Source: Halarcobacter sp.
GTDB taxonomy: Bacteria; Campylobacterota; Campylobacteria; Campylobacterales; Arcobacteraceae
NCBI GenBank assembly: GCA_963676565.1
Contig: OY781089.1
Coordinates: 96,001-160,000, forward strand
Direction of reading: 5' to 3'
DNA length: 64,000 nt
The notes beneath the pieces are model-generated. The model had not been told where the DNA came from. It worked only from the letters and a program-made list of their open reading frames with translations, and did no database searches. The first letter of the stretch is position 1; every line of letters starts with the position of its first letter. The translations under genes were made by a program, and so were the position numbers. Shown here piece by piece: positions 770 to 25,259 of the stretch.

Positions 770-791
770 AAAGTTTTTAACTTTCTATTTT
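763..791. terminator. Bidirectional intrinsic terminator-like hairpin between convergent genes
   Basis: AAAATAGAAAGTT-ttt-AACTTTCTATTTT perfect inverted repeat at the convergent stops. Confidence 0.6.
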
Positions 792-1154
792 CTTTAACTC
801 TTCATACTCTTCATCTGTAAAAATTCTAGACCTTGTTAAAAATTGATATCCTTCATCAATCTCAAGTGAAAAAGAGTTACCAAAGGCACCTTTTTCCTCT
901 TTCACATCAACAATTATTTGAGAGTGTCTAAAATATTCAAACTGTTCATGATCAATAAAAAACTCTACACCACAAATTTCACCAAGTTTTACATTTCTAC
1001 TTGGTACATAAAAGTCAGCTTTTTCATAACACATTGGAGATGTTCCATCACAACAACCACCACTTTGATTAAATACTAATTCCCCATTTTTTTCAATTAA
1101 CATCTCAATAACTTTTTGTGCTTCAGGTGTAGCTATTACTCTTCTAATATCCAT
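777..1154 (-). CDS. DUF779 family protein (aldehyde dehydrogenase-associated)
   Basis: QSGGCCDGTSPMCY motif and the usual position downstream of an AldB/ExaC-type ALDH. Confidence 0.88.
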   Translation of the reverse strand: MDIRRVIATPEAQKVIEMLIEKNGELVFNQSGGCCDGTSPMCYEKADFYVPSRNVKLGEICGVEFFIDHEQFEYFRHSQIIVDVKEEKGAFGNSFSLEIDEGYQFLTRSRIFTDEEYEELKKIES

Positions 1155-1257
1155 AACTAATCCTTTGTAATTTTATAATTGCGGGAATTTGTAGAAAATC
1201 CCTTTAAATACAATTTTAGTTAATTTTATTTAAAGAGACTTGAGGTTAGAAAATTAA

Positions 1258-1304
1258 GGCCAGGGAGGCTGAGGAAAGTAAAAAATGGAGGGGCCTCCCT
1301 GGCC
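1258..1304 (-). other. GC-rich 12-bp stem-loop with 23-nt loop in the ALDH-DUF779 intergenic region (terminator, stabiliser or 3'UTR sRNA)
   Basis: GGCCAGGGAGGC (1258-1269) pairs with GCCTCCCTGGCC (1293-1304). It is followed on the minus strand by TTAATTTTCT. Confidence 0.7.
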
Positions 1305-1326
1305 CGCTTTTAAGTTTTAATATCTA

Positions 1327-2820
1327 TTAAAAGAATCCTAAAGCATTTTTGCTGTAAGAAGTTAAGATATTTTTAGTATGTCTATAAGAGTTTAACATCA
1401 TCATGTGAGTTTCTCTACCGATACCAGATTTTTTGTATCCACCAAATGATGCATGTGATGGGTACATGTGGTAACAGTTAACCCAAACTCTACCAGCTTC
1501 AATTCCTCTAGAGAATTTATGTAATTGGTGCGCATCTCTTGACCATACACCTGAACCTAATCCGTAGATAGTATCATTTGCAATCTCTAATGCTTCATCT
1601 TCATCTTTAAATGTAGTTACTGCTAATACAGGTCCAAAAATCTCTTCTTGGAAGATTCTCATTTTATTGTGACCTTTGAAGATTGTTGGTTGAATATAGA
1701 ATCCATTTGGATTTACTTCAGACTCATAAGCATCTCCACCAATTAGACACTCAGCACCCTCTTCTTTACCAATTTTGATATATTCCATAATTTTTTCTTT
1801 TTGGTTAGAAGAACATTGAGCACCCATCATACACTCAGGATCTAATGGATTACCTAATTTAATAGCTGCAACTCTTTCAAGTACTCTTTCCATAAATGGC
1901 TCATAAATTGACTCTTGGATTAATGCTCTTGAAGGACAAGTACAAACCTCACCTGAGTTAAATGCGAATAATACAAGACCTTCAATTGCTTTATCGAAGA
2001 ACTCATCATCAGCATCCATAATTGACTCTAAGAAAATATTTGGAGATTTACCACCAAGTTCTAAAGTAGAAGGGATAATATTCTCAGTTGCATATTGCAT
2101 AATTAATTGACCAGTTGTAGTCTCACCTGTAAATCCTACTTTTTTAACATCTGGGTGAGTTGATAAGAATTTACCAATTTTTCCACCTGAACCATTAATA
2201 ATATTAACTGTACCAGCTGGTAATACTTCTTGAATAGCTTCCATCATTAATAAAATAGACATTGGAGTTGCACTCGCTGGTTTCATAACAACACAGTTAC
2301 CTGCTGCTAATGCAGGAGCTAATTTCCATGCAGCCATTAATAATGGGAAGTTCCATGGAATAATTTGAGCAACAACACCATATGGCTCATAAACCTCTTG
2401 AGAAATAGTATTTTCATCTAAATCAGCAACTGTACCAGCTTCTGATCTAATAACTGATGCAAAATATCTAAAATGATCAACAACTAAAGGAACGTCTGCT
2501 GCTAAAGTTTCTCTTACAGCTTTTCCGTTATCTAGTGTTTCTGCAACTGCTAAACTTTCTAATTTTGCTTCAATTGCATCAGCAACTTTATTTAACATAG
2601 TAGATCTTTCTACTACTGAAGTGTGTTTGTAAGATTCAAAAGCAGTTTTTGCAGCTTGAATTGCTAATTCAACATCTTCTTCATTTGATCTTGGAATTCT
2701 AGTTAATACTTCACCATCAACTGGAGAAATATTATCAAAATACTCACCACTTTTTGGAGCTACCCACTCTCCACCAATAAAGTTCTCATATTGAGGTTTA
2801 AATTCTGGTTTACTATACAT
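1327..2820 (-). CDS. exaC: NAD-dependent aldehyde (acetaldehyde) dehydrogenase, AldB/ExaC/PedI type
   Basis: IIPWNFP, GFTGET, LELGGKSP, catalytic GEVCTC and EEIFGPV motifs. The likely start is ATG 2820 (MYSKPEF) behind an AAGGA RBS; the track's upstream extension is promoter DNA. Confidence 0.9.
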   Translation of the reverse strand: MYSKPEFKPQYENFIGGEWVAPKSGEYFDNISPVDGEVLTRIPRSNEEDVELAIQAAKTAFESYKHTSVVERSTMLNKVADAIEAKLESLAVAETLDNGKAVRETLAADVPLVVDHFRYFASVIRSEAGTVADLDENTISQEVYEPYGVVAQIIPWNFPLLMAAWKLAPALAAGNCVVMKPASATPMSILLMMEAIQEVLPAGTVNIINGSGGKIGKFLSTHPDVKKVGFTGETTTGQLIMQYATENIIPSTLELGGKSPNIFLESIMDADDEFFDKAIEGLVLFAFNSGEVCTCPSRALIQESIYEPFMERVLERVAAIKLGNPLDPECMMGAQCSSNQKEKIMEYIKIGKEEGAECLIGGDAYESEVNPNGFYIQPTIFKGHNKMRIFQEEIFGPVLAVTTFKDEDEALEIANDTIYGLGSGVWSRDAHQLHKFSRGIEAGRVWVNCYHMYPSHASFGGYKKSGIGRETHMMMLNSYRHTKNILTSYSKNALGFF

Positions 2821-2885
2821 ATCTTTTCCTTTATTTTTTAATTGAAAATAAATACTCAAAAGGTATCTATTTTTTGAATATTGAA

Positions 2886-3031: not shown

Positions 3032-4924
3032 ATGAAAACATATAACTACACATTTTTCAATAACAACTTAACTGATTTAATTGATTATAGTATATTTAAA
3101 GATAAAGAAAATGTTCTAATTCAAATATTTTCTGGTCATGATTCAAGCACATTGGAGTTAATTACAAAAACAGTAATGGATAATATTCCACAGGCAGTAT
3201 GTTTAGGGACAACTACCGATGGAGAGATATGTGAATCAAAAATCTCTACACTTAAAACAATTATATCAATTTCAATTTTTGATAATACATATTTAAAAGC
3301 TTATTATATGAAAGGGGATGACGCATTTAATATAGGATATGAGATTGCACAAAAAGTTATCACCGATAATACAAAGTTAATAATCACTTTTACCGATGGA
3401 ACTGGGACAAATGCTGAAGAGTATTTGAAAGGTATAGAAAAATATGATAATTCTATAATGGTATGTGGTGGTATGGCAGGAGATAATGGAGTATTTAAAC
3501 AAACCTTTATCTCTTTAGGAAAGCAAATCTATCCTAAAGGGTATATAGCAGTTTCACTTAACTCAGATATATTAAAAGTAACAAACGCGAGAAAGTTTGA
3601 TTGGGTTCCAATAGGTTTAGAGCATACAATAGATGAAGTTGATGGAAATAGAATTTATAAAATCTCGGGGATGAGTCCTTCTGAGTTTTATAAAAAATAT
3701 TTAGGTGAGAGTGTTGCGCAAACAGAGTTTCCTTTAATAGTTGAAAGAAATGGGATACCAACAGCAAGAGCAGTACTTGAACAGCACAGAGATGGAAGTT
3801 TAAGTTGTGGAGGAAATTTAAGAAAAGGTGATATAGTTAGACTTGGTTTTGGGGATGCAGAATCTATAATGAATAATCCACTTAGTGCTTTAGATACAAG
3901 TTTTGATCATCCAATTGAAACTTTTTTCTTATATTCTTGTATGGCAAGAAGAAGGTATTTAAGAGAATTAATAAAACTTGAAACACAACCTTTTGCAGTT
4001 ATTGCTCCAACTTCTGGATTTTTTACTTATGCAGAGTTTTTCCATAGAGATGGTCATAATGAATTATTAAATCAAACATTAACAGTAGTAGCATTAAGTG
4101 AACATGATAAAAAAGTTAATGCATTGGAAATTTATCCAGAGAAGAAAACAAAATCAAAAAAAGATGCTGCCTTTGCAAGAACTTTAAGATCTCTTACTCA
4201 CTTAGTACAAAAAAGTACAGATGATTATCAAGACCAATCAAAAAGTTTAAAGGAATCAGAACTTTATGCACAAAACCTGCTAACGTCACAAAAACAATTT
4301 TTAAAACATGCAGTTCATGAAACAAATACACCACTTTCAATAATAATGGCAAACATTGAATTATATGAAATGGAAAATGGTAAAAATCAATACTTATCAA
4401 ATATTGAAGTAGCTATGAAAAATCTTTTTTCTATATATGATGATTTAAGTTATTTAGTAAAAAAAGATCAAATAGATTACCCTGAACATAAAATTGATTT
4501 TAAAGATTTTGTTAGAAGTAGAGTTGAGTTTTTTAACCAAGTTGCAACTAAAGTAAAATCAAAATTTGTTTTTAAAGCACCAAAAGAACCTATGGTTTTA
4601 CATTTTAATGAATCTAAACTACAAAGAATAATTGATAACAATCTTACAAATGCCATAAAATACACTTATGAAAATGAAGATATTTATGTAACATTAAAAA
4701 AAGAAGGAACTCACTTTAAACTTATGGTTTCAAGCCATTCAAAAAAAATCCAAGATCCAGACAAAATCTTTAAAGAATATTATAGAGAAGAGAAATCAAA
4801 AGATGGATTTGGATTGGGATTAAATTTAGTAAAAAGAATTTGTGATGAAGAGGGTGTTGAAATATATTTAGAATCTAACGAATATTTCACATCATTTGTT
4901 TATCTATTTAAAGGGGAAAGATGA
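3032..4924 (+). CDS. Cytoplasmic FIST-domain sensor histidine kinase
   Basis: FIST N/C motifs (GTTTDGEI, GGMAGD, YSCMARR, GFFTYAE), H-box HETNTPL, NNLTNAIKY and GFGLGL. No transmembrane segment seen. Confidence 0.88.
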   Translation: MKTYNYTFFNNNLTDLIDYSIFKDKENVLIQIFSGHDSSTLELITKTVMDNIPQAVCLGTTTDGEICESKISTLKTIISISIFDNTYLKAYYMKGDDAFNIGYEIAQKVITDNTKLIITFTDGTGTNAEEYLKGIEKYDNSIMVCGGMAGDNGVFKQTFISLGKQIYPKGYIAVSLNSDILKVTNARKFDWVPIGLEHTIDEVDGNRIYKISGMSPSEFYKKYLGESVAQTEFPLIVERNGIPTARAVLEQHRDGSLSCGGNLRKGDIVRLGFGDAESIMNNPLSALDTSFDHPIETFFLYSCMARRRYLRELIKLETQPFAVIAPTSGFFTYAEFFHRDGHNELLNQTLTVVALSEHDKKVNALEIYPEKKTKSKKDAAFARTLRSLTHLVQKSTDDYQDQSKSLKESELYAQNLLTSQKQFLKHAVHETNTPLSIIMANIELYEMENGKNQYLSNIEVAMKNLFSIYDDLSYLVKKDQIDYPEHKIDFKDFVRSRVEFFNQVATKVKSKFVFKAPKEPMVLHFNESKLQRIIDNNLTNAIKYTYENEDIYVTLKKEGTHFKLMVSSHSKKIQDPDKIFKEYYREEKSKDGFGLGLNLVKRICDEEGVEIYLESNEYFTSFVYLFKGER

Positions 4925-5583
4925 AAATTTTATTATTAGAAGATGATATTATGCTAAATGAGGCAATAACTCAATATCTTAGAACAGTAGGTCACTCTGT
5001 TCAATCTGTAAAAGATGGAGATGAGTGTCTAAAAAAATTAGATGAAGAAAAATTTGACCTTCTTGTTTTTGATATTAATGTTCCAAGTATTGATGGCCTT
5101 ACTATTTTAGAAGATTTACATAAAAAGAAAAGAATGGTACCAACTATTTTTATTTCTGCACTTATAGATATTGAAGATATCTCAAGGGCCTTTGATATTG
5201 GATGTCATGATTATTTAAAAAAACCATTTCACTTAAAAGAATTAAATCTTAGAATTGAAAAAATTCTAAAAACAAGAACTGCACCAATGAACCATAAAAG
5301 ATTATCAAAATCATACAGTTTTGATAGTGAAAGTATGACATTATATTTTAACAACGAACCACACATCTTACCCAAAAGACAACTTCAAATTATAGAACTA
5401 CTTACAAATAATAGAAGTTTAGTTTGTAACTATGATATGTTTAGGGATTACGTTTGGAATGACGACTTTATTGATAATGCAACAATTAGAGCAGAGGTAA
5501 ATAGAGTTAAAAAAGTTTTAAAAGAGGATTTTATTGTAAATGTTAGAGGTATTGGTTATATGGTTGAAAGACCTAGTTCTTAA
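4921..5583 (+). CDS. OmpR-family DNA-binding response regulator
   Basis: LLEDD, FDINVP and KPF receiver motifs plus a winged-helix C-terminus (NVRGIGY). ATGA overlap with the kinase. Confidence 0.92.
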   Translation: MKILLLEDDIMLNEAITQYLRTVGHSVQSVKDGDECLKKLDEEKFDLLVFDINVPSIDGLTILEDLHKKKRMVPTIFISALIDIEDISRAFDIGCHDYLKKPFHLKELNLRIEKILKTRTAPMNHKRLSKSYSFDSESMTLYFNNEPHILPKRQLQIIELLTNNRSLVCNYDMFRDYVWNDDFIDNATIRAEVNRVKKVLKEDFIVNVRGIGYMVERPSS

Positions 5584-5600
5584 GTAATATACTTAAGAAC
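5576..5600. terminator. Hairpin at convergent stops (response regulator / pqqE)
   Basis: GTTCTTAAGTA-ata-TACTTAAGAAC inverted repeat. Confidence 0.55.
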
Positions 5601-6723
5601 AACAGGTTTGTTTTTCAATAAATTTTAAAGAGTTTTGTTTATTTCTATAAATAGGTTGACTATCACTTTTATTTGCATTCTCAACTATTTTTTTAACAAC
5701 TCCATGATAAGCTGATTTATCACAAACTGGATCTGCTTCATGCATATCTTGTGTTAATGCATATGCTTGGCATCTGCATCCACCAAAATCTTTCTCTTTT
5801 TCAGGACAAGATCTGCATGTTGGATTCATCCATTCATCACCTCTAAAAAAATTAAAAGCTTTTGATTCATACCAAATCTCTTTTACAGAAGACTCCTTTA
5901 CATTTGGAAAATCTATTGGTAAAGTATTTGCAGTATTACATGGAAGAGCTATTCCATCTGGATTAATTGTTAAAAAAGTTGTTCCCCATCCATTCATACA
6001 TGCCTTTGGTCTATTTTCATAATAATCAGGTACTACAAAAAATACTTTCATATCTTTTCTTTTTTCCCTATAAAAATTTGTTACTTCCATAGCCTTGTCA
6101 AGTTGTTCTTTACTTGGTAAAAGAGCATCAACATTTTCTAATGCCCACCCATAGTATTGAATATTTGCAATCTCTAAATAGTTTGCTCCAAGCTCATCAC
6201 AAAACTCAATTATCTCACCAACTTGCTCAATATTTTGTCTTGTGATACAAGTATTTATAATAAGTTGCATACCAAGTTCTTTTACCTCTTTTGCAAAGGC
6301 AATTTTATCTTTCATTGCTGATTTATTGTTTGTAATTAAAGTCATAGTATTTTCATCATGAGACTGAATACCTAATTGAACAGTTTTAAGTCCAGCTTCT
6401 TTTAACTTTTTTAAAACTCCCTTTTCACCACCTACACCAGAAGTGATTAAGTTTGTATAAAATTTTAAATCATTTGCATATCTTACTACATCAACAATAT
6501 CTTTATTTAGTAAAGGTTCACCACCTGAAATTCCTAATTGAACAGCCCCTAAAGCTCTAGTTTCATCTAAAACTTTAAACCAATCTTCTTTACTCATACC
6601 ATCTTTTGTATTTGCAAAATCTAATTGATTATAACAATAAGTACACTCTAAAGGGCATTTGTGAGTTAACTCTAAAAGTACCCACAAAGGTGGTTTAATC
6701 CCCGACTTTTCATTAGTTGACAT
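5593..6723 (-). CDS. pqqE: PqqA peptide cyclase, radical SAM/SPASM
   Basis: PPLWVLLELTHKCPLECTYCYN, RPKACMNGWG and DFGGCRCQA motifs. Confidence 0.95.
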   Translation of the reverse strand: MSTNEKSGIKPPLWVLLELTHKCPLECTYCYNQLDFANTKDGMSKEDWFKVLDETRALGAVQLGISGGEPLLNKDIVDVVRYANDLKFYTNLITSGVGGEKGVLKKLKEAGLKTVQLGIQSHDENTMTLITNNKSAMKDKIAFAKEVKELGMQLIINTCITRQNIEQVGEIIEFCDELGANYLEIANIQYYGWALENVDALLPSKEQLDKAMEVTNFYREKRKDMKVFFVVPDYYENRPKACMNGWGTTFLTINPDGIALPCNTANTLPIDFPNVKESSVKEIWYESKAFNFFRGDEWMNPTCRSCPEKEKDFGGCRCQAYALTQDMHEADPVCDKSAYHGVVKKIVENANKSDSQPIYRNKQNSLKFIEKQTCCS

Positions 6724-6982
6724 AATTTACCCACTTTCTATCAAAGGCTTCATCAAAAAATGCTTCCACATCTTTTTCTAATCCTGACATCTCAAACTTT
6801 TTTTCCAATGTTGAAACTATTTCATTAAAATTCTTAGTTCCATCACATTGGTTCATTATTTCACCAGCACTTTGATTTAGTTGAACCATACCTTCTGGGT
6901 ATAATAAAACAAAACAATCTTGTGCTTGCTCAAATTGTAATTGAAAGTGTTCATTCACTACAATTAATTTTTCTTTGTTCAT
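6713..6982 (-). CDS. pqqD: PqqA-binding chaperone (RiPP recognition element)
   Basis: [19 protein letters not shown] motif, between pqqC and pqqE. Start chosen by RBS spacing. Confidence 0.9.
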
Positions 6983-7709
6983 TTTCATAACCTTCAATAT
7001 TGAAATACGGTGGTCTTTTTAATTCGTATGCCAAATATAAAGCATCACACATAGTCCAAAGTATATCAAGTTTAAACTGTAAAATTTCAAAAGCTTTATT
7101 TTGAAGTTCAACTGTATTAAACTCTTCTAAAGTGATTGAAAGTCCATGTTGAACATCCCTTCTTGCTTCACTCAATCTTTTTTGGAAATATCTCAAACCT
7201 TTTGCTTCAATCCAAGGATAATTATCTGGCCATGTACTTAATCTTTGTTGGTGAATTTGAGGTGCAAACATCTCAGTTAAAGATGACATTGCAGCTTCTT
7301 TCCAAGGTCTTTGTTTTGCAAAGTTAATATAAGCATCTACTGCAAATTTAACTGATGGTAAAACATATTTATGAGAAATTAAATCCTCTTTATTTAATCC
7401 AACAGCTTCACCTAATTCAAGCCAAGCTTCAATTCCACCACCAACACTATCATGGTCAATAATTCTATCAATCCATTTTCTTCTATCTTCTAAAGGTGGG
7501 TTATTTGACATAATTGCTGCATCTTTAATTGGAATTGCTGTTTGATAATAAAATCTATTTGCTACCCAGCCTTGGATTTCCTCTTTTGTACAATCCCCTT
7601 GATACATTCTAATATGAAATGGATGGTGAATGTGATACATATCACCCATACCTCTTAACTTTGCTTCAAACTCTTCTTTACTTAGTAATTCACTCATTTT
7701 TTTTGTCAT
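6951..7709 (-). CDS. pqqC: Pyrroloquinoline-quinone synthase
   Basis: [36 protein letters not shown] and FKLDILW motifs. Confidence 0.96.
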
Positions 7710-7772: not shown

Positions 7773-8690
7773 TTATATATCTATTCTCATCCCATCATAA
7801 GAAACTTCAATCCCATGGGAAATAAGTTCTTTATATTCAGGATTTTCTTCATCTAAGATTGGATTTGTATTGTTAATATGAATTAATATTTTTCGTGGTT
7901 TTTCTAAAGTATCTAAAATTTTAATAAGCCCTTCTTCTCCACTTAAAGGGATATGCCCCATATCAGTGCCTAATTTAGTAGAAAACTTACCTTTTATCAT
8001 CTCATCATTTGTCCAAAGGGTTCCTTCTATTAAAAGAACATCTGCATTTCGCATCTCTTCAAAAACATGATCTTCCATAACCCCAAGACCAGGAAGATAA
8101 AACAATCTTTTTCCTGTATTTTTATTTACAACTGTAATTCCAATATTATCACCCTTTCTTGGATGATCTCTATGTGGTGAATATGGTGGTGCATTTGAAA
8201 TAAGTGCATGGGCATAAAACTCATATGAAGGCATCACTGGTATTTCAAATTTTGTAGTAGAATCTGGCAAGATTTCATGCCAAACAGTTCCTCCACCATC
8301 CCAATGTTGTAACATTTTCATAGTAGGAAATGATGAATTCAATTCTTCATTTACCTCTTTTGTACAATAAATTTGGTGAGGACAACCTTCCCTTAACATA
8401 AGTAAACCAGTTGTATGGTCTATTTGAGCATCGTTAAATACGATTGCTTTAATTTTAGTTTCTCTTTTTTTTGTTGGATGTAAAAAAGGTGAATTATGAA
8501 TTTGCTCTAAAATATCTGGGCTAGTATTAAGTAAAACCCAGTTCTCACCATCTTCACTAATAGTAATTGAACTTTGAGTTCTTTTTTTTATACTTTTTTT
8601 GCCTTCTCTGTAACCTTTACAATTGTCACAGTTACAATTAAATTGTGGTAAGCCACCACCTGCACCTGAACCTAGAACTTGAATCCTCAC
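7773..8690 (-). CDS. pqqB: PQQ biosynthesis protein B (metallo-beta-lactamase fold hydroxylase)
   Basis: VLGSGAGGGLPQFNCNCDNC, RTQSS, DHTTGL and LIHINNTNPIL motifs. Likely GTG start at 8690 after AAAGGA. Confidence 0.94.
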   Translation of the reverse strand: MRIQVLGSGAGGGLPQFNCNCDNCKGYREGKKSIKKRTQSSITISEDGENWVLLNTSPDILEQIHNSPFLHPTKKRETKIKAIVFNDAQIDHTTGLLMLREGCPHQIYCTKEVNEELNSSFPTMKMLQHWDGGGTVWHEILPDSTTKFEIPVMPSYEFYAHALISNAPPYSPHRDHPRKGDNIGITVVNKNTGKRLFYLPGLGVMEDHVFEEMRNADVLLIEGTLWTNDEMIKGKFSTKLGTDMGHIPLSGEEGLIKILDTLEKPRKILIHINNTNPILDEENPEYKELISHGIEVSYDGMRIDI

Positions 8691-8751
8691 AATATATCCT
8701 TTCATTTTTCCTCAAAGAAAAAAATTCCCACATTTTTTTGTTTGAAGAAAA

Positions 8752-8773
8752 GACTAGAGCAAAAGCTCTAGTC
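8752..8773 (-). terminator. Hairpin between pqqA and pqqB
   Basis: GACTAGAGC-TTTT-GCTCTAGTC followed by TTTTCTT on the minus strand, 12 nt after the pqqA stop. Confidence 0.75.
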
Positions 8774-8785
8774 AAGTTTAAAAAA

Positions 8786-8860
8786 TTACTTTGTACAAAT
8801 GTACATAGTAACTTCAAAACCAAATCTGTTATCTACGAATGTAGGTGTTTCCCATTTCAT
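8786..8860 (-). CDS. pqqA: PQQ precursor peptide PqqA, MKWETPTFVDNRFGFEVTMYICTK (24 aa; absent from the ORF track)
   Basis: Hand translation gives the W.xP..RFGFEVTMY core with ExxxY. AGGAGG RBS at 8874-8869, directly upstream of pqqB. Confidence 0.96.
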   Translation of the reverse strand: MKWETPTFVDNRFGFEVTMYICTK

Positions 8861-10723: not shown

Positions 10724-10755
10724 AGTATATATGAGAAAAGTAGCAACAGTTTAGC
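10724..10755 (-). promoter_or_regulatory. pedH-pqq promoter: GCTA-N7-GCTA-N11-TATACT
   Basis: TAGC on + at 10741 and 10752; agtata at 10724-10729. Confidence 0.75.
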
Positions 10756-14977: not shown

Positions 14978-15425
14978 ATCTTTTCTTGCACTTTTAGTTC
15001 TTAGCCTAAGTATAAATGCCTATGAGGTAACAGATAAAGATAATTACTTTACTGTAAAAATTCAAGATGAAAAATTTCATGAACTATATGTGAATTTAAA
15101 AGATGAAATAAATTTTAATTCATATGTTATAGTTCATGAATTAAATTTAGCAAAGTCTACTAAGGCTGTTGCTGATGCTCTAGAGGAAAAAGTTGTTGTA
15201 AAAAATGGAATAAATTTATTGATTTGTAAAACCTCATTTACCCTTAAAATGCATCAAGAAAATATTCACAATATGACTTTTTGTCCAATGGTTATCTCTA
15301 TATACGAAGATGAAACCTCAAACTATATATCTTTTAGGAAATATCACCCTCTAAATAACAATGATAAAATAGCACTTACTATAAATAAAAGACTAAAAAC
15401 ATTAATTTTAAACTCCCTTGATTAA
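14970..15425 (+). CDS. Exported DUF302-domain protein
   Basis: Signal peptide; LLICK...FCPMVISIYE pattern. Confidence 0.65.
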   Translation: MIKSFLALLVLSLSINAYEVTDKDNYFTVKIQDEKFHELYVNLKDEINFNSYVIVHELNLAKSTKAVADALEEKVVVKNGINLLICKTSFTLKMHQENIHNMTFCPMVISIYEDETSNYISFRKYHPLNNNDKIALTINKRLKTLILNSLD

Positions 15426-17636: not shown

Positions 17637-19357
17637 TGAAACCTAAACCAATTAAAAATAGTATAAAAAATAAAATCATAATTCAATTTACCCTCATATT
17701 ATCTGTTTTTTTGTTACTAATTTCATTTTCAATTGGTTATTTATTTATTAAAAACACAGAATCCCATGCACAAGATTTATTAAAAAATAGAGCCTTATTA
17801 ATAGAAGAAAAAATACAAGAAAGACTTTATTACCTAATTGAGCAAACATCACTTCTTTCAAAAAACTCACTTATGGTTAATTCTTTAATTGATGATGATA
17901 ATAAAGAGGAATACCTTTTACCACTAGCTTCAAATTTTATGGAAGATAAAAATGTAAAAGACCTAAATATCATAGATTTTGATGGTGAGATAATTTTTAA
18001 AACTGCTAAAAATGTACCTAAATATAGTAAATCAATATATATTAGAAATGCACTAGCACTAGGACAAACAACATATTATTTAGAGAAAAATGAAAACAAA
18101 TTTATTGTTGTTTCACCTGTTAAATATTATGAAACAACCCAAGGGGCTTTAATAGCTACTTTTAATCTTGAAAAAATCTTACGAAAATATATAGTTAATT
18201 CAAATGATGAATATATTGAGATACTAAATACTAAAAATGATAAACTTTTATACACAAATAACCACGATGAAAATAAAAAGTACTATTCTTATAGTTTAAA
18301 AAATCAAAACTTATCACTTTTTGATGAATTAAATATTACATTAAATATTGGAAAACTAGAATCTGCATATCTATTTCCCATACAAGATGCTGTAAAAAAA
18401 GTACTTATTATGAGTTTTATTCTAATCTTGATTGGAACCTTACTCTCATATTTATTAGCTGAATCAATCACTAAACCTATTATAGAATTATATAAAAAGA
18501 TAAACAATAATGAGTTTCATGAAAGATATAAGCCTTTAGGCACAAATGATGAATTAGAAGTATTATCATTTGCATTCCATGAAAAAGTAAAACAATTAAA
18601 TCAATTTAAAAATGAAGAGTTAGAGAAACAAAAACTTTTACTAGAACAGTCAAAAATGGCCTCATTAGGTGAGATGATTGGAAATATTGCCCATCAATGG
18701 AGACAACCTTTATCTGTTATATCAACTGCTTCAAGTGGTTTAAAAATGAAACAAGAATATGGGATTTTAGAAGAACATGAGATGTATTCTGTTCTTGATT
18801 CTATTAATGAAAACACCCAATACTTATCAAAAACAATTGATGACTTTAGAAATTTTATTATTGGGAAAAGAGAAAAGAAACAATTTAACTTAAGTAAACA
18901 AATTGATAGTTTTTTATCTTTAATGATGGGAAGTATAAAAACACATGAAATCAATATAGTACGTAAAGAACAAACAGATATAGAGATTAATGGATACCCA
19001 AATGAATTAACCCAATGTTTAATGAATATAATTAATAACTCAAAAGATGCCTTTGAAGAAAAGGGAATAAAAGAAAAATATATTTTTATAAAAACATATA
19101 CTAAAAATTCTTCAATTTTTATAGAAATTAAAGACAATGCAGAAGGTATTGATGAAGATATTATCCTAAAAATATTTGAACCTTATTTTACAACAAAACA
19201 TAAATCCAGAGGTACAGGATTAGGACTTAGTATGACATATAGATTGATTACTGAAGGGATGAAGGGTAATATAAAAGTAAGAAACACAACTTTTAATTAT
19301 GAAAAGAAAACCTATAAAGGGGCAGAATTTATTATTACTTTACCCCCTGTAGATTAG
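17636..19357 (+). CDS. Membrane sensor histidine kinase (periplasmic Cache-like domain, HAMP)
   Basis: Two TM segments, KMASLGEMIGNIAHQWRQPL, FEPYFTTK and GTGLGL. TAATG overlap with the upstream gene. Confidence 0.88.
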   Translation: MKPKPIKNSIKNKIIIQFTLILSVFLLLISFSIGYLFIKNTESHAQDLLKNRALLIEEKIQERLYYLIEQTSLLSKNSLMVNSLIDDDNKEEYLLPLASNFMEDKNVKDLNIIDFDGEIIFKTAKNVPKYSKSIYIRNALALGQTTYYLEKNENKFIVVSPVKYYETTQGALIATFNLEKILRKYIVNSNDEYIEILNTKNDKLLYTNNHDENKKYYSYSLKNQNLSLFDELNITLNIGKLESAYLFPIQDAVKKVLIMSFILILIGTLLSYLLAESITKPIIELYKKINNNEFHERYKPLGTNDELEVLSFAFHEKVKQLNQFKNEELEKQKLLLEQSKMASLGEMIGNIAHQWRQPLSVISTASSGLKMKQEYGILEEHEMYSVLDSINENTQYLSKTIDDFRNFIIGKREKKQFNLSKQIDSFLSLMMGSIKTHEINIVRKEQTDIEINGYPNELTQCLMNIINNSKDAFEEKGIKEKYIFIKTYTKNSSIFIEIKDNAEGIDEDIILKIFEPYFTTKHKSRGTGLGLSMTYRLITEGMKGNIKVRNTTFNYEKKTYKGAEFIITLPPVD

Positions 19358-19752
19358 TATTTCCCAAACTCTTTGTAAGTTTTATCTTCAAAAATTATAA
19401 ATACTGTTTTAGGGTTTTTATCGTTTTCATAAGCTGGAAGAGATAATCCAATTGCATTTTTAGGTTTTTCCTTCAAAAAGTCTTTTATAGCACGTGAGGG
19501 AACATTCCCTTCAAAAACATAATCTCCCATTAGTGAAGTATTACAAGATTGAATATCATAAGGAATTCCTATTTGTCTTTTTAAATTTTTTACATTCATA
19601 ACTGTAACAACATCAACCTCTTTTGCTACTTTTTCCATCTCTATAAACCAAGATTTAGGGCAAGTGCTTGTTGGTGGTTGAAAAACTTGTAGTTTAGATT
19701 CACTGGCAAAAAGTGAAATTGCCAACAAACAAAAAGCTAAAATTTTCATCAT
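19354..19752 (-). CDS. Exported DUF411/CopG-like protein with degenerate metal ligands
   Basis: KRQIGIP..IQSCNT..GDYVFEGNVP..I.DFL.EKP..IGL matches the DUF411 pattern. Confidence 0.65.
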   Translation of the reverse strand: MMKILAFCLLAISLFASESKLQVFQPPTSTCPKSWFIEMEKVAKEVDVVTVMNVKNLKRQIGIPYDIQSCNTSLMGDYVFEGNVPSRAIKDFLKEKPKNAIGLSLPAYENDKNPKTVFIIFEDKTYKEFGKY

Positions 19753-20447
19753 AATTCTCCTTTTAAAATATTTGGATATTTTTCCAATAGATTATTTTTT
19801 ATTTGATCAATATTTTTAATATCAAAACTTTGATTATTAGGGTTATTAAACTCTAAAACTATTTTTGCAGGTTTACTAGAAAGAAATAAAATTCTATTGG
19901 AAAATAAAATTGCTTCACTAATATCATGAGTTACTAAAACAACAATTGGATTAAACTTATTACATAGTTTTAAAAACTCTTTTTTTAATTCTTGGGAAGT
20001 TGGAAAATCCAAAGATATAAAAGGTTCATCTAAAAAAATTACCTCTGGTTGGTTTATAAAAGCTCTAGCTAGTGCAACTCTTCTTTTCATACCACCAGAT
20101 AAAGCCTTTGGAAACTTATCTAAAACATCTTCTAATGCAACTAATTTTAAAATATCATTTATCTCATCTAAATCTTTAGATCTTGAAACTAATAAAAGAT
20201 TTTCTTTGATACTAAGCCAAGGTAATAATCTATCATCTTGAAACATAAATGATATATTTTTATAAGGCATTGAAATATCACCTTTGTAATCAGTTTCTAA
20301 ATTTGCCAATAAATTTAAAAAAGTGCTTTTACCACAACCACTAGGACCAACAATTGAAATGAACTCTTGTTCTTTAATTTTAAATTCAATATCTTCTAAT
20401 ACCTTTATTTCATTAAAACTTTTGTTTTGAATATTTATATTTATCAT
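19749..20447 (-). CDS. NitT/TauT-family ABC ATP-binding protein
   Basis: GPSGCGKST, LSGGMKRRVALARA and LDEPF. Confidence 0.9.
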   Translation of the reverse strand: MININIQNKSFNEIKVLEDIEFKIKEQEFISIVGPSGCGKSTFLNLLANLETDYKGDISMPYKNISFMFQDDRLLPWLSIKENLLLVSRSKDLDEINDILKLVALEDVLDKFPKALSGGMKRRVALARAFINQPEVIFLDEPFISLDFPTSQELKKEFLKLCNKFNPIVVLVTHDISEAILFSNRILFLSSKPAKIVLEFNNPNNQSFDIKNIDQIKNNLLEKYPNILKGEL

Positions 20448-20448: not shown

Positions 20449-21183
20449 TTATTTCCATTCCAACATCTTATTTTCTAAAGGTTTTAAAATAGCCATCTCT
20501 ATAAACATAACAATAAAAATAAAAGCTAAAGAATAAGCTAATATAGAAGTTATATCAAAAAATTGGAAAAACATTGAGATTTTAAATCCTATACCATCAC
20601 TTCTCCCAAGTAATTCAACAACTAAAACTATTTTCCAAATTAAAGACAAAGATAATCTAGCAGAAGCCATCATATATGGATAAATTTGAGGTAAAAAAAC
20701 TTTGAAAAACACTTGTTTTTTTGGAACCTTATAAACTTTTGCTAAATCCATATATTTTGACTCAATTGCCCTAGTCCCTTCCCTTATATTAACAACTACT
20801 ATTGGAACTTTATTTATAATTACAGCTAGAAGTGCTGCAAAATCAGTTAATCCAAACCAAATATAACAAATAACAATTACTACTAAAGCTGGAATATTTA
20901 AACCTAAAACTAATAAAAAATCAAAGATATCATCTATTTTTTTTGATATTCCCATTATAATTCCAAAAAATATTCCAATTATCATAGTGATAAAAAATGT
21001 TATTACAACCCTAAATAGTGTAATCTTTAAATCATCTAATAATTCCCCATCTACTAAATGTTCAAATAGTTTTATACCTATATCAACAGATGAAGGGAAA
21101 ACTTGAGATGCAAGGACTATTGAAGAGGCTTGCCATATGATAATAAAAGCACAAATTGATAATAATCTAGTTTGTAACAACAC
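20449..21183 (-). CDS. NitT/TauT-family ABC permease
   Basis: Six TM segments; WKIVLVVELLGRSDGIG. Confidence 0.88.
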   Translation of the reverse strand: MLLQTRLLSICAFIIIWQASSIVLASQVFPSSVDIGIKLFEHLVDGELLDDLKITLFRVVITFFITMIIGIFFGIIMGISKKIDDIFDFLLVLGLNIPALVVIVICYIWFGLTDFAALLAVIINKVPIVVVNIREGTRAIESKYMDLAKVYKVPKKQVFFKVFLPQIYPYMMASARLSLSLIWKIVLVVELLGRSDGIGFKISMFFQFFDITSILAYSLAFIFIVMFIEMAILKPLENKMLEWK

Positions 21184-21201: not shown

Positions 21202-22161
21202 TTACTGATTAGTTTCCCAAAAAGTTGCAGGGTCTAACTCTTTGCTATTTTTAACTAATTTTTTTCCACCTTGTTTTTGTAATACTTTAAATATTTTTTT
21301 TGAATCTTCGATGTTTTTTTCATCAAATTTAAGTATCACTCCATTTTTATAGCCCTCTTTTAATGAGTTAAATGTTACTTCATCTTTTACTTTCATCAGT
21401 GGTTTTATTCTATCCCATTCTTTATCATCTTCTAACAAGATTTTTTTAGCACTTTTACTTGCATTTATAAATGAATCATATAATCTTGGATCCATGAGAG
21501 CTAAATCTCTTCTAAATGTCCAACCAATTAAAGGTATATCTTCATTAATTCCAAAACTTTTAAAAACCTCTTTAATTTCAATAATAGGTCTTGCTCCTTT
21601 TGCCTTTGCTTTTGCATTAAAATGCCAAAAGTTCAGCGCTCCATCTAAAGAACCATCAAGTACTTTTTTAAGTAATATGGGAGGAGCAGCAAAGGTTGGA
21701 TTAATAATATCTTTAAAATCTTTGCCATATTTTAATTTACTATATGCCCTTAAGATAAGCCAAGTTTTATCAACAGGTCCTCCTGCAACTCCAATATTTT
21801 TCCCTTCTAAATCTAATAAAGTTTTAGCATTACTGTTTTTTCCAAGGTATAAAGTCCCCGTTGCCTTAGAATAAGGGTAAAGTGTATAATCTCCCCCATT
21901 TGCCCTTTGAGTATTTACCCAAACCCAATCAGTAACTATAATATCAACACTTCCAGATTGAAGGGCTATTGATGTAGCATTTTTTGAAGCTAGTTTAACA
22001 ACTTCAAGTTCAAAACCATTTTTAATATCAAGTTTATTATGTTTTAAAACATCTAATTCCCAATTAACTGTTCCAAATGCTAAAACACCTACTTTTAATT
22101 TTTCCAAAGCATATAAATTTGTAAACAAAAAACAAATTGTTAAAAATATGATTTTAAACAT
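21202..22161 (-). CDS. NMT1/TauA-like substrate-binding protein, probably PqqT-like (PQQ binding)
   Basis: GVLAFGTVNWEL, IVTDWVWV, GGPVDKTW and LNFWHF motifs. From memory, this family is linked to xoxF/ped clusters. Confidence 0.65.
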   Translation of the reverse strand: MFKIIFLTICFLFTNLYALEKLKVGVLAFGTVNWELDVLKHNKLDIKNGFELEVVKLASKNATSIALQSGSVDIIVTDWVWVNTQRANGGDYTLYPYSKATGTLYLGKNSNAKTLLDLEGKNIGVAGGPVDKTWLILRAYSKLKYGKDFKDIINPTFAAPPILLKKVLDGSLDGALNFWHFNAKAKAKGARPIIEIKEVFKSFGINEDIPLIGWTFRRDLALMDPRLYDSFINASKSAKKILLEDDKEWDRIKPLMKVKDEVTFNSLKEGYKNGVILKFDEKNIEDSKKIFKVLQKQGGKKLVKNSKELDPATFWETNQ

Positions 22162-22272: not shown

Positions 22273-22305
22273 TCCAACATGCAAAAATTTCGCAAAAGGA
22301 TATAC

Positions 22306-22725
22306 ATGAATAAAATCGAAAAATTAACACTTGCAGTTTTGTTTTCTGCAATAACTGCATTTGGGCATGGAAGTGTTACACCACAAAAAGTTGACACAAC
22401 AGGTTTAGAACAATTAGGTGATACTTGGGTATCAGAAAATCCATATAGTACTGATAATGCAAGAGCTGTAGAGATTGGAAGATCTGGATATAGTGAAAAC
22501 TGTGCAAGATGTCATGGACTTGATGTTATCTCTGGTGGTATTGCTCCTGATTTAAGAGAGTTAGATAAGTTTGAAGATGAATACTTCTTAGGAAAAGTAT
22601 TAAGTGGAGTTACAAGAAATGGTAATGTTTATATGCCATCATTTGCTGAAGTTTTAAGTCAAGAAGCAATTTGGGCAATTAGAACATATATCATGGATAG
22701 AAGAGCAAAAGACGGTATAGAGTAA
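22306..22725 (+). CDS. pedF: Cytochrome c-550, electron acceptor of the quinoprotein ADH (PedF/ExaB)
   Basis: AFGHGSVTPQKVDT, ENPY, heme motif CARCH, SGGIAPDLR and YMP..LSQEAIWAIR. Start after AAAGGA. Confidence 0.9.
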   Translation: MNKIEKLTLAVLFSAITAFGHGSVTPQKVDTTGLEQLGDTWVSENPYSTDNARAVEIGRSGYSENCARCHGLDVISGGIAPDLRELDKFEDEYFLGKVLSGVTRNGNVYMPSFAEVLSQEAIWAIRTYIMDRRAKDGIE

Positions 22726-22729
22726 TATT

Positions 22730-23599
22730 ATGAAAATTCTTAGATTATTAGTTTTATTTGCACTTTTGATAGTTTTTGCAAAAGCAAGAAGCATTGAAGA
22801 GATTCAAGAAAGTGGTTATATAACAATAGCTGTTTACGAAGATTTTCCACCTTACTCATTTACAGAAAACAATGAGTTAAAAGGGATTGATGTAGATTTA
22901 GGAAAACTACTTGCAAAATCTCTAAAAGTAAAAGCTAAATGGCAATTAACAGGCTCTGATGAAACTTTAGCTGATGATCTAAGAATTAATATTTGGAAGG
23001 GTAATCTAATTCATAAAAACTATGCAGACGTAATGTTTAGAGTTCCATACGATTATGATTATTTAAGATTAAGAGATAAACAAACAGGTGAACTTCAAAC
23101 AGATATGGTTTCTATTAAAGGGCCATATCATAGTGAAAAATGGGTTATAGCAACACACAAGGATAAAATTCCAAAGATTAATACTTTAGGAATTTTTGCT
23201 TACCATACTATAGGTGTAGAGTTAGATACCCTTCCAGATAATCATTTAACAGGATTTGCAAGAGGTTTAATTAATAAAAATGTTAAACACTATTTCCACT
23301 TTAAAGATGCAATAAAAGATTTTAAAGAGGGAAAAATTGATGCAATTGCTGGATTAAAATCCCAATTAGAGTATCTATTAGATTTTAATAACAATAAAGA
23401 TAAGTTTTATATGACTAGTAAAATTCCACAAATAAAATCACACTGGGATATTGCCACAGCAGTTCACACTAGTTATAGACCATTAAGTTATCATATTGAT
23501 GGCTTAATATCTGAAAATTACGAGAATGGTAATATTAAAAAAATATTTGAAAAATATGGAGTCAATTACTTACCTCCAATAGCAAGAACACAACAATAA
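22730..23599 (+). CDS. Quinoprotein dehydrogenase-associated periplasmic binding-fold protein (MxaJ/XoxJ-like role)
   Basis: AVYEDFPPYSF, DETLADDLR.NIWKG and ADVMFRVPYD motifs. Follows pedF as in Pseudomonas ped clusters. Confidence 0.78.
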   Translation: MKILRLLVLFALLIVFAKARSIEEIQESGYITIAVYEDFPPYSFTENNELKGIDVDLGKLLAKSLKVKAKWQLTGSDETLADDLRINIWKGNLIHKNYADVMFRVPYDYDYLRLRDKQTGELQTDMVSIKGPYHSEKWVIATHKDKIPKINTLGIFAYHTIGVELDTLPDNHLTGFARGLINKNVKHYFHFKDAIKDFKEGKIDAIAGLKSQLEYLLDFNNNKDKFYMTSKIPQIKSHWDIATAVHTSYRPLSYHIDGLISENYENGNIKKIFEKYGVNYLPPIARTQQ

Positions 23600-23613
23600 A
23601 ATAAGGAGTTGTC

Positions 23614-24357
23614 ATGAAAAGTATACTCATTTTCGCTACATTAATTCTAACAATGTTAAACCTAGAAGCAAAGAATCCTATAGTATCTCCCACTTTTGAT
23701 GATATTATCAAAATTACTATTGGCGAAGATGAGTATACCTTTGATGACAAAAATGTCCAAGTAAAGGTACCCTCTTTTGCTGATAACCCTGTTCAAGTTC
23801 CCATTTTTGTAGATGCCTCAAAAATTAAGAATCCTAAAAAAATGATTCTTTTTGCTGATTTGAATCCTATTCCAGTTATTTTAACTATGACACCAAAAGA
23901 TTTTCTACCAGTTATCTCAACAAATATAAAAGTTGCCCAAGAAACTCCTTTAAGAGCTTTAGTTTTAGATGAAAATAATCTATGGCATGTTGGAAGCGCA
24001 AACATCAATAGTAATGGTGGAGGTTGCGATGTAACAAGTTTAGCAGCTGCGAATGGAAATGTTGCAGAAAATATAGGGAAAAGTAAAGGGAAAATATTTG
24101 ATAAAAAAGATCAAAAAAGAGTTAAATTCTCAATATTTCATCCTATGGAAACTGGCTTAGTTTTTGGGGCTAGCTCATTTTTTATAAATAAAATAGAAAT
24201 TAAAGATGAGAATAACAAGTTATTAACTGTTTTAGATACAAGCGCAGCAATTAGTGAAAATCCAAGAATTACTTTAGAAACAAAAAAAGAGTTTAAAGAA
24301 TTAAATATCAACTTTTTGGATACTGATGCAAATAATTTTGAGTTAAATATAAAATGA
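23614..24357 (+). CDS. Quinoprotein dehydrogenase-associated SoxYZ-like carrier (fused)
   Basis: FADLNPIP, GGGC swinging-arm motif, HPMETGLV and AISENP. Confidence 0.85.
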   Translation: MKSILIFATLILTMLNLEAKNPIVSPTFDDIIKITIGEDEYTFDDKNVQVKVPSFADNPVQVPIFVDASKIKNPKKMILFADLNPIPVILTMTPKDFLPVISTNIKVAQETPLRALVLDENNLWHVGSANINSNGGGCDVTSLAAANGNVAENIGKSKGKIFDKKDQKRVKFSIFHPMETGLVFGASSFFINKIEIKDENNKLLTVLDTSAAISENPRITLETKKEFKELNINFLDTDANNFELNIK

Positions 24358-25259
24358 AAATTTTATTTTTAGCAATAATATTTTTTAATTCACTTTTTGC
24401 CTTTGAATATAAGCTAAAGCCAGAAAAGCTAGATGAAAATAGCTACTATTTTTATGGAAAAGAGGAGTATTTTTCAAAGGAAAATGGTGGAGATATTGCA
24501 AACACTGCTTTTATAATCACTAAAAATTCTGTTATAGTAATAGATACAGGAACAACAGTTGATTATGCAAATGCTATGAAAAAAGAGATTTCAAAGCTTA
24601 CTAAAAATCCTATAAATTTTGTAATAAATACACACCACCATCCTGATCATTTTTTAGGAAATAAAGCCTTTAAAGATGCTAAAATTTATGCAACAGAGCA
24701 TACAATTGAAGATATAAAATTAAATGGTGAAAAATATGTTTCAAATATGGTAAACCTAATAGGTGAAGCTGCTTATTCAACTAGAGCTAAAGTTCCAAAT
24801 AAATTACTTACAACAAAAAAACTAGTCTTAGATGGGTATGAATTAGATATTTTATACTTAGATGGTCATACAAAAAGTGATATAGCTATACTAGATAATA
24901 AAACAAAAATACTCTATGCTTCTGATTTAGTTTTTAACCACAGAGCCCTAGCAACACCCCATGCAAATTTAAAAAAGTGGATTTTGGCATTAAAAGAATT
25001 AAAAAAACTTGATTTTAAAACTTTAGTTCCAGGGCATGGAAAAGTGACTTTCTCAAAAAATGTTATTGATAAAGATATCAGATACTTAAAGTTTTTGGAT
25101 AAAACATTGAAAGAAGCTATAGAAAATGGACTTGATACCTTTGAAATTTTGGAACAAGAAATTCCAGAGGATATTAAAAATTATTCTATGTTTGAAGAAG
25201 AGTATGAAAGAAGTATTATAAATCTATACAAAAAGTATGAACTGCAACTCTCTTATTAA
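24354..25259 (+). CDS. Quinoprotein relay system zinc metallohydrolase (MBL fold)
   Basis: NGGDIAN, THHHPDHFLGN, GHT..D and VPGHG motifs; directly after the SoxYZ-like gene. Confidence 0.85.
   Translation: MKILFLAIIFFNSLFAFEYKLKPEKLDENSYYFYGKEEYFSKENGGDIANTAFIITKNSVIVIDTGTTVDYANAMKKEISKLTKNPINFVINTHHHPDHFLGNKAFKDAKIYATEHTIEDIKLNGEKYVSNMVNLIGEAAYSTRAKVPNKLLTTKKLVLDGYELDILYLDGHTKSDIAILDNKTKILYASDLVFNHRALATPHANLKKWILALKELKKLDFKTLVPGHGKVTFSKNVIDKDIRYLKFLDKTLKEAIENGLDTFEILEQEIPEDIKNYSMFEEEYERSIINLYKKYELQLSY

Follow-up and report, generated by a model that had tools for sequence, protein, structure and literature searches.

Lanthanide-using alcohol dehydrogenases (ADHs) have so far been studied in methylotrophs and Pseudomonas. 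According to the available text of PMC6839425, the ATP-binding cassette (ABC) system PedA1A2BC is required for lanthanum-dependent growth of P. putida, where pedA1-A2-B-C is predicted to be 1 operon, and the similar lut ABC system of M. extorquens is required for lanthanide-dependent growth. The accessible part of PMC11331073 describes PqqT (PDB 9B1U), a periplasmic protein of M. extorquens that binds pyrroloquinoline quinone (PQQ), together with the roles of its residues, including the contact of Lys142 with PQQ. We analyzed 64,000 nucleotides of a Halarcobacter sp. genome (Arcobacteraceae, Campylobacterota; GCA_963676565.1, contig OY781089.1, positions 96,001 to 160,000), a stretch referred to here as the window. 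We identified a contiguous block at 777-25259, referred to as the island, with genes for PQQ biosynthesis, a PQQ-ADH of the PedH type, an aldehyde dehydrogenase (ALDH), and Ped-type and PqqT-like ABC systems, every open reading frame (ORF) being intact in the ORF listing and in Pfam and NCBIfam scans. A prediction made earlier from the sequence of the window alone (the original prediction) had listed these components, and all of them were recovered as intact ORFs. We consider it likely that they constitute an intact PedH-type periplasmic alcohol-oxidation locus, which would operate by the mechanism proposed below and go back to a single ancestral acquisition. The locus is a conserved trait of Arcobacteraceae, not an oddity of 1 genome.

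In comparisons with PDB entries, the PQQ-ADH scored 894.7 bits with PedH (6ZCW), 674.8 bits with the calcium-type ExaA (1FLG), and approximately 361 bits with XoxF. Residues 333-337 read WDFDG, aligned with WDFDG in PedH and WDFSG in ExaA; the second Asp of D-x-D (Asp336), which lies 2 residues after the catalytic Asp and is Ser or Ala in calcium-type enzymes, is the established mark of lanthanide enzymes. Further, the Cys146-Cys147 (PCCDVINRG), GGEFG, GNPAPWN, and D-x-D stretches were identical to those of PedH 6ZCW in the printed alignment, and the vicinal Cys, GGEFG, and GNPAPWN stretches presumably belong to the metal/PQQ active site. This gene is the sole PQQ-ADH in the window's genome (3.34 Mb, 1 contig, 99.97% complete) and sits on the Asp-type side of the ADH tree, so that the single quinoprotein ADH with a lanthanide motif named in the original prediction was confirmed. 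From its sequence we infer that its activity would be lanthanide-dependent. The closest of at least 595 tblastn matches were Arcobacter/Aliarcobacter records (80-84% identity; records titled Arcobacter sp. YIC-464 are among those with the ADH), followed by Halioxenophilus (75%) and Pseudomonas (approximately 70%), and Methylobacteriaceae rows were 68-71% identical to the window ADH. The enzyme is predicted to be lipid-anchored, with an N-terminal lipobox (LISGC, divided before the Cys) followed by a Ser/Thr/Asn-rich linker. Of the 33 family lanthanide-type rows that include an N-terminus, 19 had the lipobox Cys, as did the window ADH in addition, in contrast to 0 of 72 proteobacterial Asp-type rows.

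We surveyed 184 species-level Arcobacteraceae genomes with 22 genus codes and identified a PQQ-ADH above cut-off in 55 genomes from 10 genus codes (cut-off denotes the family model's own threshold in all bit comparisons, including those with the NCBIfam equivalog models for the pedB-like ATPase and ALDH). Every ADH place covering the motif was typed, in 56 genomes, with 47 having Asp-type ADHs only (WDFDG or WDYDG), 5 having Ser-type ADHs only (WDFSG), and 4 having both. A lanthanide-type ADH was therefore present in 51 of the 184 genomes, about a quarter, and a Ser-type ADH in 9 of the 56 typed genomes, the window's genome not being among the latter. Two further genomes had ADH fragments only, and 1 weak match was spurious. 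The pqqC gene was above cut-off in 56 of the 184 genomes, and the 58 genomes with a pqqC match were the 59 with an ADH match minus G117, whose ADH match was weak (E 1.8e-4). In a 401-genome sample of the phylum, no PQQ-ADH match was found in the 377 genomes from 13 other families, and 4 of 23 Arcobacteraceae matched besides the window's own genome. The original prediction had proposed such a presence/absence survey, and by this measure the island is not peculiar to the window's genome, being a family-wide conserved locus (51 of 184 genomes and all 10 of the regions compared below).

Synteny was analyzed by tblastn of 31 window proteins against 40-kb regions from 10 family genomes with six genus codes. 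The same order was recovered in all 10 regions: DUF779-ALDH / FIST-kinase-regulator / pqqEDCB-ADH-pedC-B-A2 / pedA1-u151 / DUF411-ABC / pedF-substrate-binding protein (SBP)-SoxYZ-hydrolase, with 1 genome (G169) lacking the SoxYZ and hydrolase genes. The flanking pepA gene adjoined the hydrolase end in 7 of the 10 regions and was also at that end in G169 and, with approximately 5 kb between it and the hydrolase, in G155, and the G047 region stopped short of the pepA point. A methyltransferase adjoined DUF779 in 4 regions. Same-genus genomes without the ADH had PepA proteins of just 55-57% identity and were thus too remote for the island boundaries to be read from their flanks. In 1 genome with both ADH types, the Ser-type gene sat as an insertion between pedA2 and pedB, and 1 Ser-type-only genome had neither pedA1A2BC nor the PqqT-like ABC system. 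We also compared 80 named loci, comprising 72 proteobacterial (ADH +/- 10 kb) and 8 Arcobacter-type loci. The usual order in the 72 proteobacterial loci was pedC-B-A2-A1 / pedF-SBP-SoxYZ-hydrolase-ADH-ALDH-pqq, and the accessory proteins were 30-67% identical to the displayed proteobacterial counterparts.

A tree of 125 nonidentical ADHs, from the window, the family loci, and the best 80 of at least 595 tblastn matches, was inferred with IQ-TREE in quick mode (LG+G4). All 38 family Asp-type rows fell into 1 clade (Shimodaira-Hasegawa approximate likelihood ratio test, SH-aLRT, 100), within a 61-row clade (SH-aLRT 99) that also held 20 Pseudomonadaceae and 3 Alteromonadaceae rows, and three family Ser-type rows stood beside 12 Pseudomonadaceae-type PedE rows. 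The ADH phylogeny suggested as a check by the original prediction thus placed the family lanthanide-type rows as a monophyletic group beside Pseudomonadaceae/Alteromonadaceae. Genus labels changed 10 times on the tree compared with 19.9 times when shuffled. The GC content was 0.290 in the island and 0.272 in the rest of the window, and GC at third codon positions (GC3) was 0.11-0.24 in island genes and 0.12-0.17 in eight nonisland genes (NusA, CysS, MiaB, and others). NusA (61209-62384), which like CysS lies 36 kb from the island in the window, had its best matches in Halarcobacter-titled (97/86/85%), Campylobacterales (89%), and Arcobacter (88%) records, then in other Arcobacteraceae, in agreement with the Arcobacter-like host assumed originally. 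Taken together, synteny, the pepA flank, the ADH clade, and GC3 indicate 1 old acquisition followed by mostly vertical descent and repeated loss. The locus would have entered the ancestor of Arcobacteraceae once, from a gammaproteobacterium-like source, and would have been passed on mostly vertically since, with many losses. The old acquisition put forward at the outset is in line with GC3 values that match host genes and with synteny and a pepA flank kept across genera.

We propose that pqqABCDE would make PQQ and that the PqqT-like ABC system would import PQQ from the periplasm, with the PedA1A2BC-like ABC system handling lanthanide ions. The PQQ-ADH, predicted to be lipid-anchored, would bind PQQ and a light lanthanide and convert ethanol or other alcohols to aldehydes in the periplasm, and the PedF-type cytochrome c550 would take up electrons from the ADH and deliver them to a cbb3 oxidase. 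The cytoplasmic ExaC-like ALDH, with DUF779, would then convert the aldehyde to the acid. The SBP in the PedG position, the SoxYZ-like carrier, and the SoxH-like hydrolase may serve in maturation or protection, the role suggested for such factors in Pseudomonas, and the FIST kinase with the OmpR-type regulator would control the locus, replacing the LuxR-type regulators of Pseudomonas. The substrates, electron route, lanthanide dependence, lipid anchoring, and regulator roles in this scheme are read from sequence.

Several observations weigh against this reading. Lanthanide dependence is argued from 1 Asp and from similarity to PedH. Two cytoplasmic genes of the Fe-ADH family elsewhere in the genome could oxidize alcohols independently; because of them, the original prediction's proposed refutation by lanthanide-independent growth "with no other ADH in the genome" needs care. 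The pedB-like ATPase (290 vs. 302 bits) and the ALDH (837 vs. 900) were just below their equivalog cut-offs, and the SBP in the PedG position barely matched TIGR03871 (26.8 vs. 212). No genes for an outer-membrane lanthanide receptor, lanmodulin, or lanthanophores turned up in the island, where no search was aimed at them. The genome had no full isocitrate lyase (one 58-bit partial match) and no AcsA above cut-off, in a search that covered AcsA and not other acetate-activation routes, and growth on ethanol as sole carbon is therefore not assured. A random-primed metatranscriptome (X19) yielded 15 contigs 90-99% alike to the window, almost only on the ALDH and ADH genes (9 of 30 bins), which is weak support for expression; the contigs stem from relatives, not from this strain, and no genes are more conserved than the two they cover, so that conservation alone could explain the pattern. 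The relatives counted in the census are not independent, and co-occurrence counts among them overstate the support. The tree came from a quick search, and the nearest outside relative may be missing from it because its proteobacterial rows are the best 80 of at least 595 matches.

The window stretch was present in DNA runs labelled as salt marsh and wastewater metagenomes, among others. An oligo-dT RNA run (X21) gave 3 partial reads and was uninformative. Two other runs were set aside as evidence, X17 because it may be DNA and X18 for its low scattered depth, with 87% of the sequence unlike the window beyond the match.

Among the alternatives, it is possible, although we lean against it, that the lanthanide-type system is real and serves mainly as an auxiliary respiratory electron input or in alcohol/aldehyde detoxification, not in growth on ethanol. 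The lack of a complete glyoxylate shunt marker and of AcsA above cut-off points this way, as does the supply of electrons by the locus to a c-type cytochrome and to a cbb3 oxidase of high affinity, whose ccoN was identified in the window's genome (693 bits vs. cut-off 583). Related ADH/ALDH sequences in libraries labelled root (X19) and wastewater (X17, possibly DNA) are a further, weak pointer. In such a role, a broad PedH-like substrate range could include alcohols from algae, plants, and fermenters. In contrast, all 10 regions had an ExaC-like ALDH linked to the island, which fits a catabolic route to acetate. DUF779 adjoined the ALDH in each of these regions. Within the preferred account of a PedH-type alcohol-oxidation locus, energy gain or detoxification may still be more important than growth on ethanol.

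A bolder version of that account, which we hold to be doubtful as a joint claim, is that most island-bearing Arcobacteraceae are wholly rare-earth dependent, 47 of the 56 typed genomes being without a calcium-type back-up, and use a variant pathway with a lipid-anchored PedH and a FIST sensor in place of PedS2/PedR2. The secreted protein u139, the DUF302-like protein, and the His-less DUF411 protein, periplasmic proteins that are unstudied or confined to the family, could then traffic lanthanides or PQQ instead of lanmodulin, LanD, or LutH. If this were true, the Campylobacterota that abound in marine, wastewater, and host-associated settings would form a sink for lanthanides and volatile alcohols that has gone unrecognized.

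It is improbable, in our judgment, that the ADH is calcium-dependent or metal-promiscuous despite its Asp and that pedA1A2BC moves another cargo, for example, alcohols. The Ped transporter does go by the name "alcohol ABC transporter" in NCBIfam, dissolved lanthanide is very scarce in marine and wastewater habitats, and the island scans, which included no search aimed at them, identified no lanthanide-specific outer-membrane or chelator genes. However, the ADH has the Asp and scores far higher with PedH (895 bits) than with ExaA (675 bits), and to our knowledge, every characterized enzyme with this Asp is lanthanide-dependent. A pedA1 homologue was identified in 49 of the 184 family genomes, namely 47 of the 51 Asp-type genomes and both fragment-only genomes; the four Asp-type genomes without it were 61-94% complete, whereas pedA1 was found in 0 of the 5 Ser-type-only genomes, which were 95-100% complete. 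Within the family, pedA1 thus tracks the Asp-type ADH, which is support and not a statistical test, and the corresponding transporter of P. putida is the one required for lanthanum-dependent growth (PMC6839425, available text).

Least credible of all is that the island arrived recently by horizontal transfer or is an artefact of assembly or binning, a reading suggested by the solely proteobacterial characterized relatives and the 70-75% ADH identity to Pseudomonas/Alteromonadaceae, and opposed by the single near-complete contig, NusA and CysS in the same window, host-like GC3, the locus beside pepA in other genera, a single family ADH clade largely tracking genus labels, and accessory genes just 30-67% identical to the displayed proteobacterial ones.

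Table 1. Genes and elements of the island and its two flanks (window positions; scores in bits against model cut-offs unless an E value is given)
Feature	Position	Strand	Evidence or remark
Methyltransf_28 gene	2-769		flank beside DUF779 end
DUF779 protein	777-1154	-	PF05610 E 2e-36; downstream partner of ALDH
ExaC/PedI-like NAD-type ALDH	ORF 1327-2967, likely 1327-2820	-	PF00171 E 1e-157
Histidine kinase with FIST_N and FIST_C	3032-4924	+	Pfam FIST, FIST_C, HisKA, HATPase_c
OmpR-family response regulator	4921-5583	+	Response_reg and Trans_reg_C; overlaps kinase stop
pqqE, radical SAM/SPASM	5593-6723	-	TIGR02109 467 vs. 381
pqqD	6713-6997	-	NF002535 106.9 vs. 101; TIGR03859 100 vs. 46
pqqC	6951-7709	-	TIGR02111 332 vs. 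240
pqqB	7773-8705	-	TIGR02108 376 vs. 245
Terminator-like hairpin directly after pqqA	8752-8773	-	9-bp stem, 4-nt loop, T-rich tail
pqqA, 24-aa precursor peptide with E-x3-Y	8786-8860	-	TIGR02107 42.6 vs. 20
PedH-type PQQ-ADH, 593 aa	8897-10678	-	TIGR03075 784.4 vs. 480
pedC-like ABC-2 permease	10751-11533	-	TIGR03861 346 vs. 241
pedB-like ABC ATPase	11536-12258	-	TIGR03864 289.8, just below 302
pedA2-like periplasmic YVTN beta-propeller	12271-13242	-	TIGR03866 503.7 vs. 287
u139, secreted, 139 aa	13264-13683	-	no Pfam/NCBIfam family
pedA1-like substrate-binding protein	13826-14977	+	TIGR03863 416.5 vs. 413.6
u151, secreted, 151 aa, weak DUF302 relative	14970-15425	+	PF03625 E 0.024
DctP + Peripla_BP_6 fusion, 708 aa	15510-17636	+	Pfam
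dCache histidine kinase	17636-19357	+	Pfam
DUF411 (CopG-family) variant	19354-19752	-	PF04214 E 1.6e-11; last gene of PqqT-like ABC operon
ABC ATPase of PqqT-like system	19749-20447	-	ABC_tran
Permease of PqqT-like system	20449-21183	-	BPD_transp_1
PqqT-like periplasmic binding protein	21202-22161	-	PDB 9B1U E 4.6e-52
Cytochrome c550, PedF/ExaB-like	22279-22725	+	TIGR04494 184.6 vs. 122
SBP in PedG position	22730-23599	+	SBP_bac_3; TIGR03871 26.8 vs. 212
Quinoprotein-associated SoxYZ-like carrier	23614-24357	+	TIGR04557 154.8 vs. 140
Quinoprotein relay system zinc metallohydrolase 1, SoxH-like	24354-25259	+	TIGR04558 359.9 vs. 300
pepA	25284-26705		flank beside hydrolase end

The five pqqABCDE genes were intact, in order, and each above its NCBIfam cut-off (Table 1). 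All members of the Ped-type ABC system, the SBP, YVTN beta-propeller, ATPase, and ABC-2 permease, were present, with the ATPase alone below cut-off; pedA1 (13826-14977, +) is divergent from the minus-strand genes u139-pedA2-pedB-pedC, and these genes do not form a single pedA1-A2-B-C unit. The SBP at 21202-22161 has no Pfam family and matched PqqT 9B1U over its whole length (180 bits, residues 20-314 vs. 3-297). Leu37, Thr41, Gly112, and the PQQ-contacting Lys142 were kept (paper's numbering, offset 27), and Glu111, Asn143, and Ala42 were not, Glu111 and Asn143 each being Thr (D-K-T vs. D-K-N). With the permease and ATPase adjoining, the PqqT-like ABC system of the original prediction holds, and PQQ binding by this SBP is putative. 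The SBP in the PedG position was 24-40% identical to the same-position gene in the 13 displayed proteobacterial loci having one. The ALDH had ExaC NF050026 as its best NCBIfam match (837.3 bits vs. cut-off 900), the next family scoring 481, and its likely start is the ATG at 2820, with AAGGA upstream.

The regulators and several small genes set the family loci apart from the proteobacterial ones. The FIST-domain kinase was kept in 10 of 10 family regions and in 7 of the 8 named Arcobacter-type loci, in contrast to 0 of 72 proteobacterial loci with such a gene beside the ADH, and copies of the OmpR-type regulator were 76-96% identical in all 10 family regions. Regulatory rewiring, as originally suggested, is thus partly borne out by the kinase and regulator; the associated claim of host-type promoters is unsupported, as sigma-70-like sites were not enriched (57 found vs. 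70.4 +/- 9.1 in shuffles), a count that says nothing either way. Elsewhere in the window (51653-57259, +), a separate four-gene signalling operon, NosP/NahK-type in look, encodes a PAS+HD response regulator, a stand-alone FIST protein, a histidine kinase, and a receiver-kinase hybrid. The best NCBIfam match of the PAS+HD regulator was a NosR-family c-di-GMP phosphodiesterase (173 bits, below the cut-off of 400), and the stand-alone FIST protein (53467-54591) showed no significant similarity to the island kinase's own FIST domain (E 0.11).

The secreted protein u139 lies between pedA2 and pedA1 in the window, some Pseudomonas loci have it close to their ped-type genes, and it is optional in the family (4 of 10 regions). 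It had no Pfam or NCBIfam match beyond chance level up to E 5. Its homologues (491 matches, among them proteins of Malaciobacter pacificus, Arcobacter peruensis, and Arcobacter roscoffensis) carry no Pfam domain and are labelled hypothetical, "copper-binding," or "cupredoxin domain-containing" by their sources, and the invariant positions in their alignment are GKY, FFRN-W, E-RP-G, and an acidic EFD-EG. The structural model (predicted local distance difference test, pLDDT, 84.2) matched cupredoxin domains in Foldseek (template modelling score, TM, 0.5-0.6), and u139 has no Cys and a single His outside the predicted fold. We therefore predict a cupredoxin-like fold without copper ligands. A relationship to LanD or another solved lanthanide protein was considered and rejected, with no PDB sequence match up to E 10 and only generic cupredoxins in Foldseek.

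All 10 family regions and 6 of the 8 named Arcobacter-type loci had the protein u151, in contrast to 0 of the 72 proteobacterial loci, and its atlas score of 0.89 to DUF302 clusters is a lead only. The DUF411 variant was identified in 5 of the 8 Arcobacter-type and 0 of the 72 proteobacterial loci. The 14 family copies that were aligned all have SCNT and EGNVP, with the two conserved Cys kept; canonical DUF411 proteins presumably have His at the positions that are Asn here. The island has a variable slot between u151 and DUF411, and in the closest relative of the window the 2 genes adjoin directly. In the window, this slot holds an insert (15510-19357, GC 0.256) with the DctP fusion and a dCache kinase without an adjacent regulator, and none of the 10 family regions or the 80 named loci had a homologue; the insert is strain-specific.

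Several further features were observed. The 172-bp ALDH-DUF779 spacer holds a perfect GC-only 5-bp palindromic hairpin (1291-1305, GGGCC...GGCCC), conspicuous in 29% GC DNA and terminator-like on both strands. Beyond the island, an ArsR-family regulator with an ArsP-type permease (29257-30807, -) and a molybdopterin oxidoreductase (31154-33232, +) are ordinary genes unlinked to the finding. A second weak ccoN-like match in the window's genome (G000:C1:1438716-1440038, -) scored 48 bits and has one in-frame TAA. In three other family genomes, a second divergent pqqC-like gene lies near the island (G004:C22:111654-112331, G019:C61:20-697, and G025:C79:8045-8722), with 258-265 bits compared with approximately 335 for the first, and in the named locus L006, extra pqqC- and pqqE-like genes lie between the ADH and pqqB. 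At G167:C15:400674-402246, an Asp-type ADH occurs in two adjacent overlapping pieces (model 5-316 and 306-530), suggesting a frameshift or a broken gene.

Our literature search, with supplements and subscription journals outside its scope, turned up no paper that connects PedH, lanthanide-dependent ADH, or PQQ-ADH with Arcobacter, Arcobacteraceae, Campylobacterota, or Epsilonproteobacteria, and the joint mentions that were read proved unrelated; this agrees with the earlier statement that no experimental description was known for Campylobacterota. In its available text, the A. butzleri genome paper describes a cysteine tryptophylquinone (CTQ) amine dehydrogenase, not a PQQ-ADH (PMC2147049), and a 2026 review of ped clusters contains the words "Arcobacter" and "Campylobacter" nowhere in the part available (PMC12997753). 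Arcobacteraceae are frequent in coastal water and sediments as well as in wastewater and animal-associated habitats, and a rare-earth need for alcohol oxidation, if true, bears on their ecology, their cultivation media, and lanthanide cycling. Further, the natural comparison set of 47 Asp-only, 5 Ser-only, and 4 both-type genomes suits testing the roles of transporter and accessory genes.

The finding adds a phylum-level member, with modest variants, to a known system, and standard family models name the genes correctly. With P. aeruginosa, the island shares the logic of a quinoprotein ethanol dehydrogenase, c550, and NAD ALDH beside a pqq operon, whereas ExaA has Ser (WDFSG) and uses Ca2+ and the window ADH has Asp; strain PAO1 is without the PedA1A2BC, PedG, SoxYZ, and SoxH genes, according to the available part of PMC12997753. 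ExaF of M. extorquens AM1 is a lanthanide-type ethanol dehydrogenase of the same subfamily as the window ADH, and PqqT of M. extorquens is matched by the window SBP with Lys142 kept. XoxF, lanmodulin, LanD, and LutH had no counterparts in the window scans, with no genome-wide search made for LutH or lanmodulin, and the window's host gave no sign of methylotrophy.

The closest system is P. putida KT2440's ped cluster, with a shared D-F-D motif, PedH 6ZCW as the nearest relative of the window ADH (895 bits), and homologues of pedA1/A2/B/C and the ALDH. The PedF c550, SoxYZ-like carrier, and metallohydrolase, all above cut-off, stand with the intervening SBP in the order of PP_2675-PP_2678 (PedF-SBP-SoxYZ-hydrolase; Table 1 of PMC12997753, available part). 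For these four genes, the same order as in the ped cluster, as originally claimed, is correct; it is not correct for the rest, as the window, unlike P. putida, has the ADH beside pedC/pqqA, the pqq operon inside the island, and pedA1 divergent from pedA2BC. P. putida has a calcium-type PedE partner, whereas the window's genome has none, and PedS2/PedR2, AgmR, PedD, YiaY, and the rhodanese PP_2666 have no homologues in the island. In place of PedS2/PedR2, the window has the FIST kinase and OmpR-type regulator, its ADH carries the lipobox Cys absent from the proteobacterial rows, and its island additionally includes the PqqT-type ABC system, the DUF411 variant, and the DUF302-like gene.

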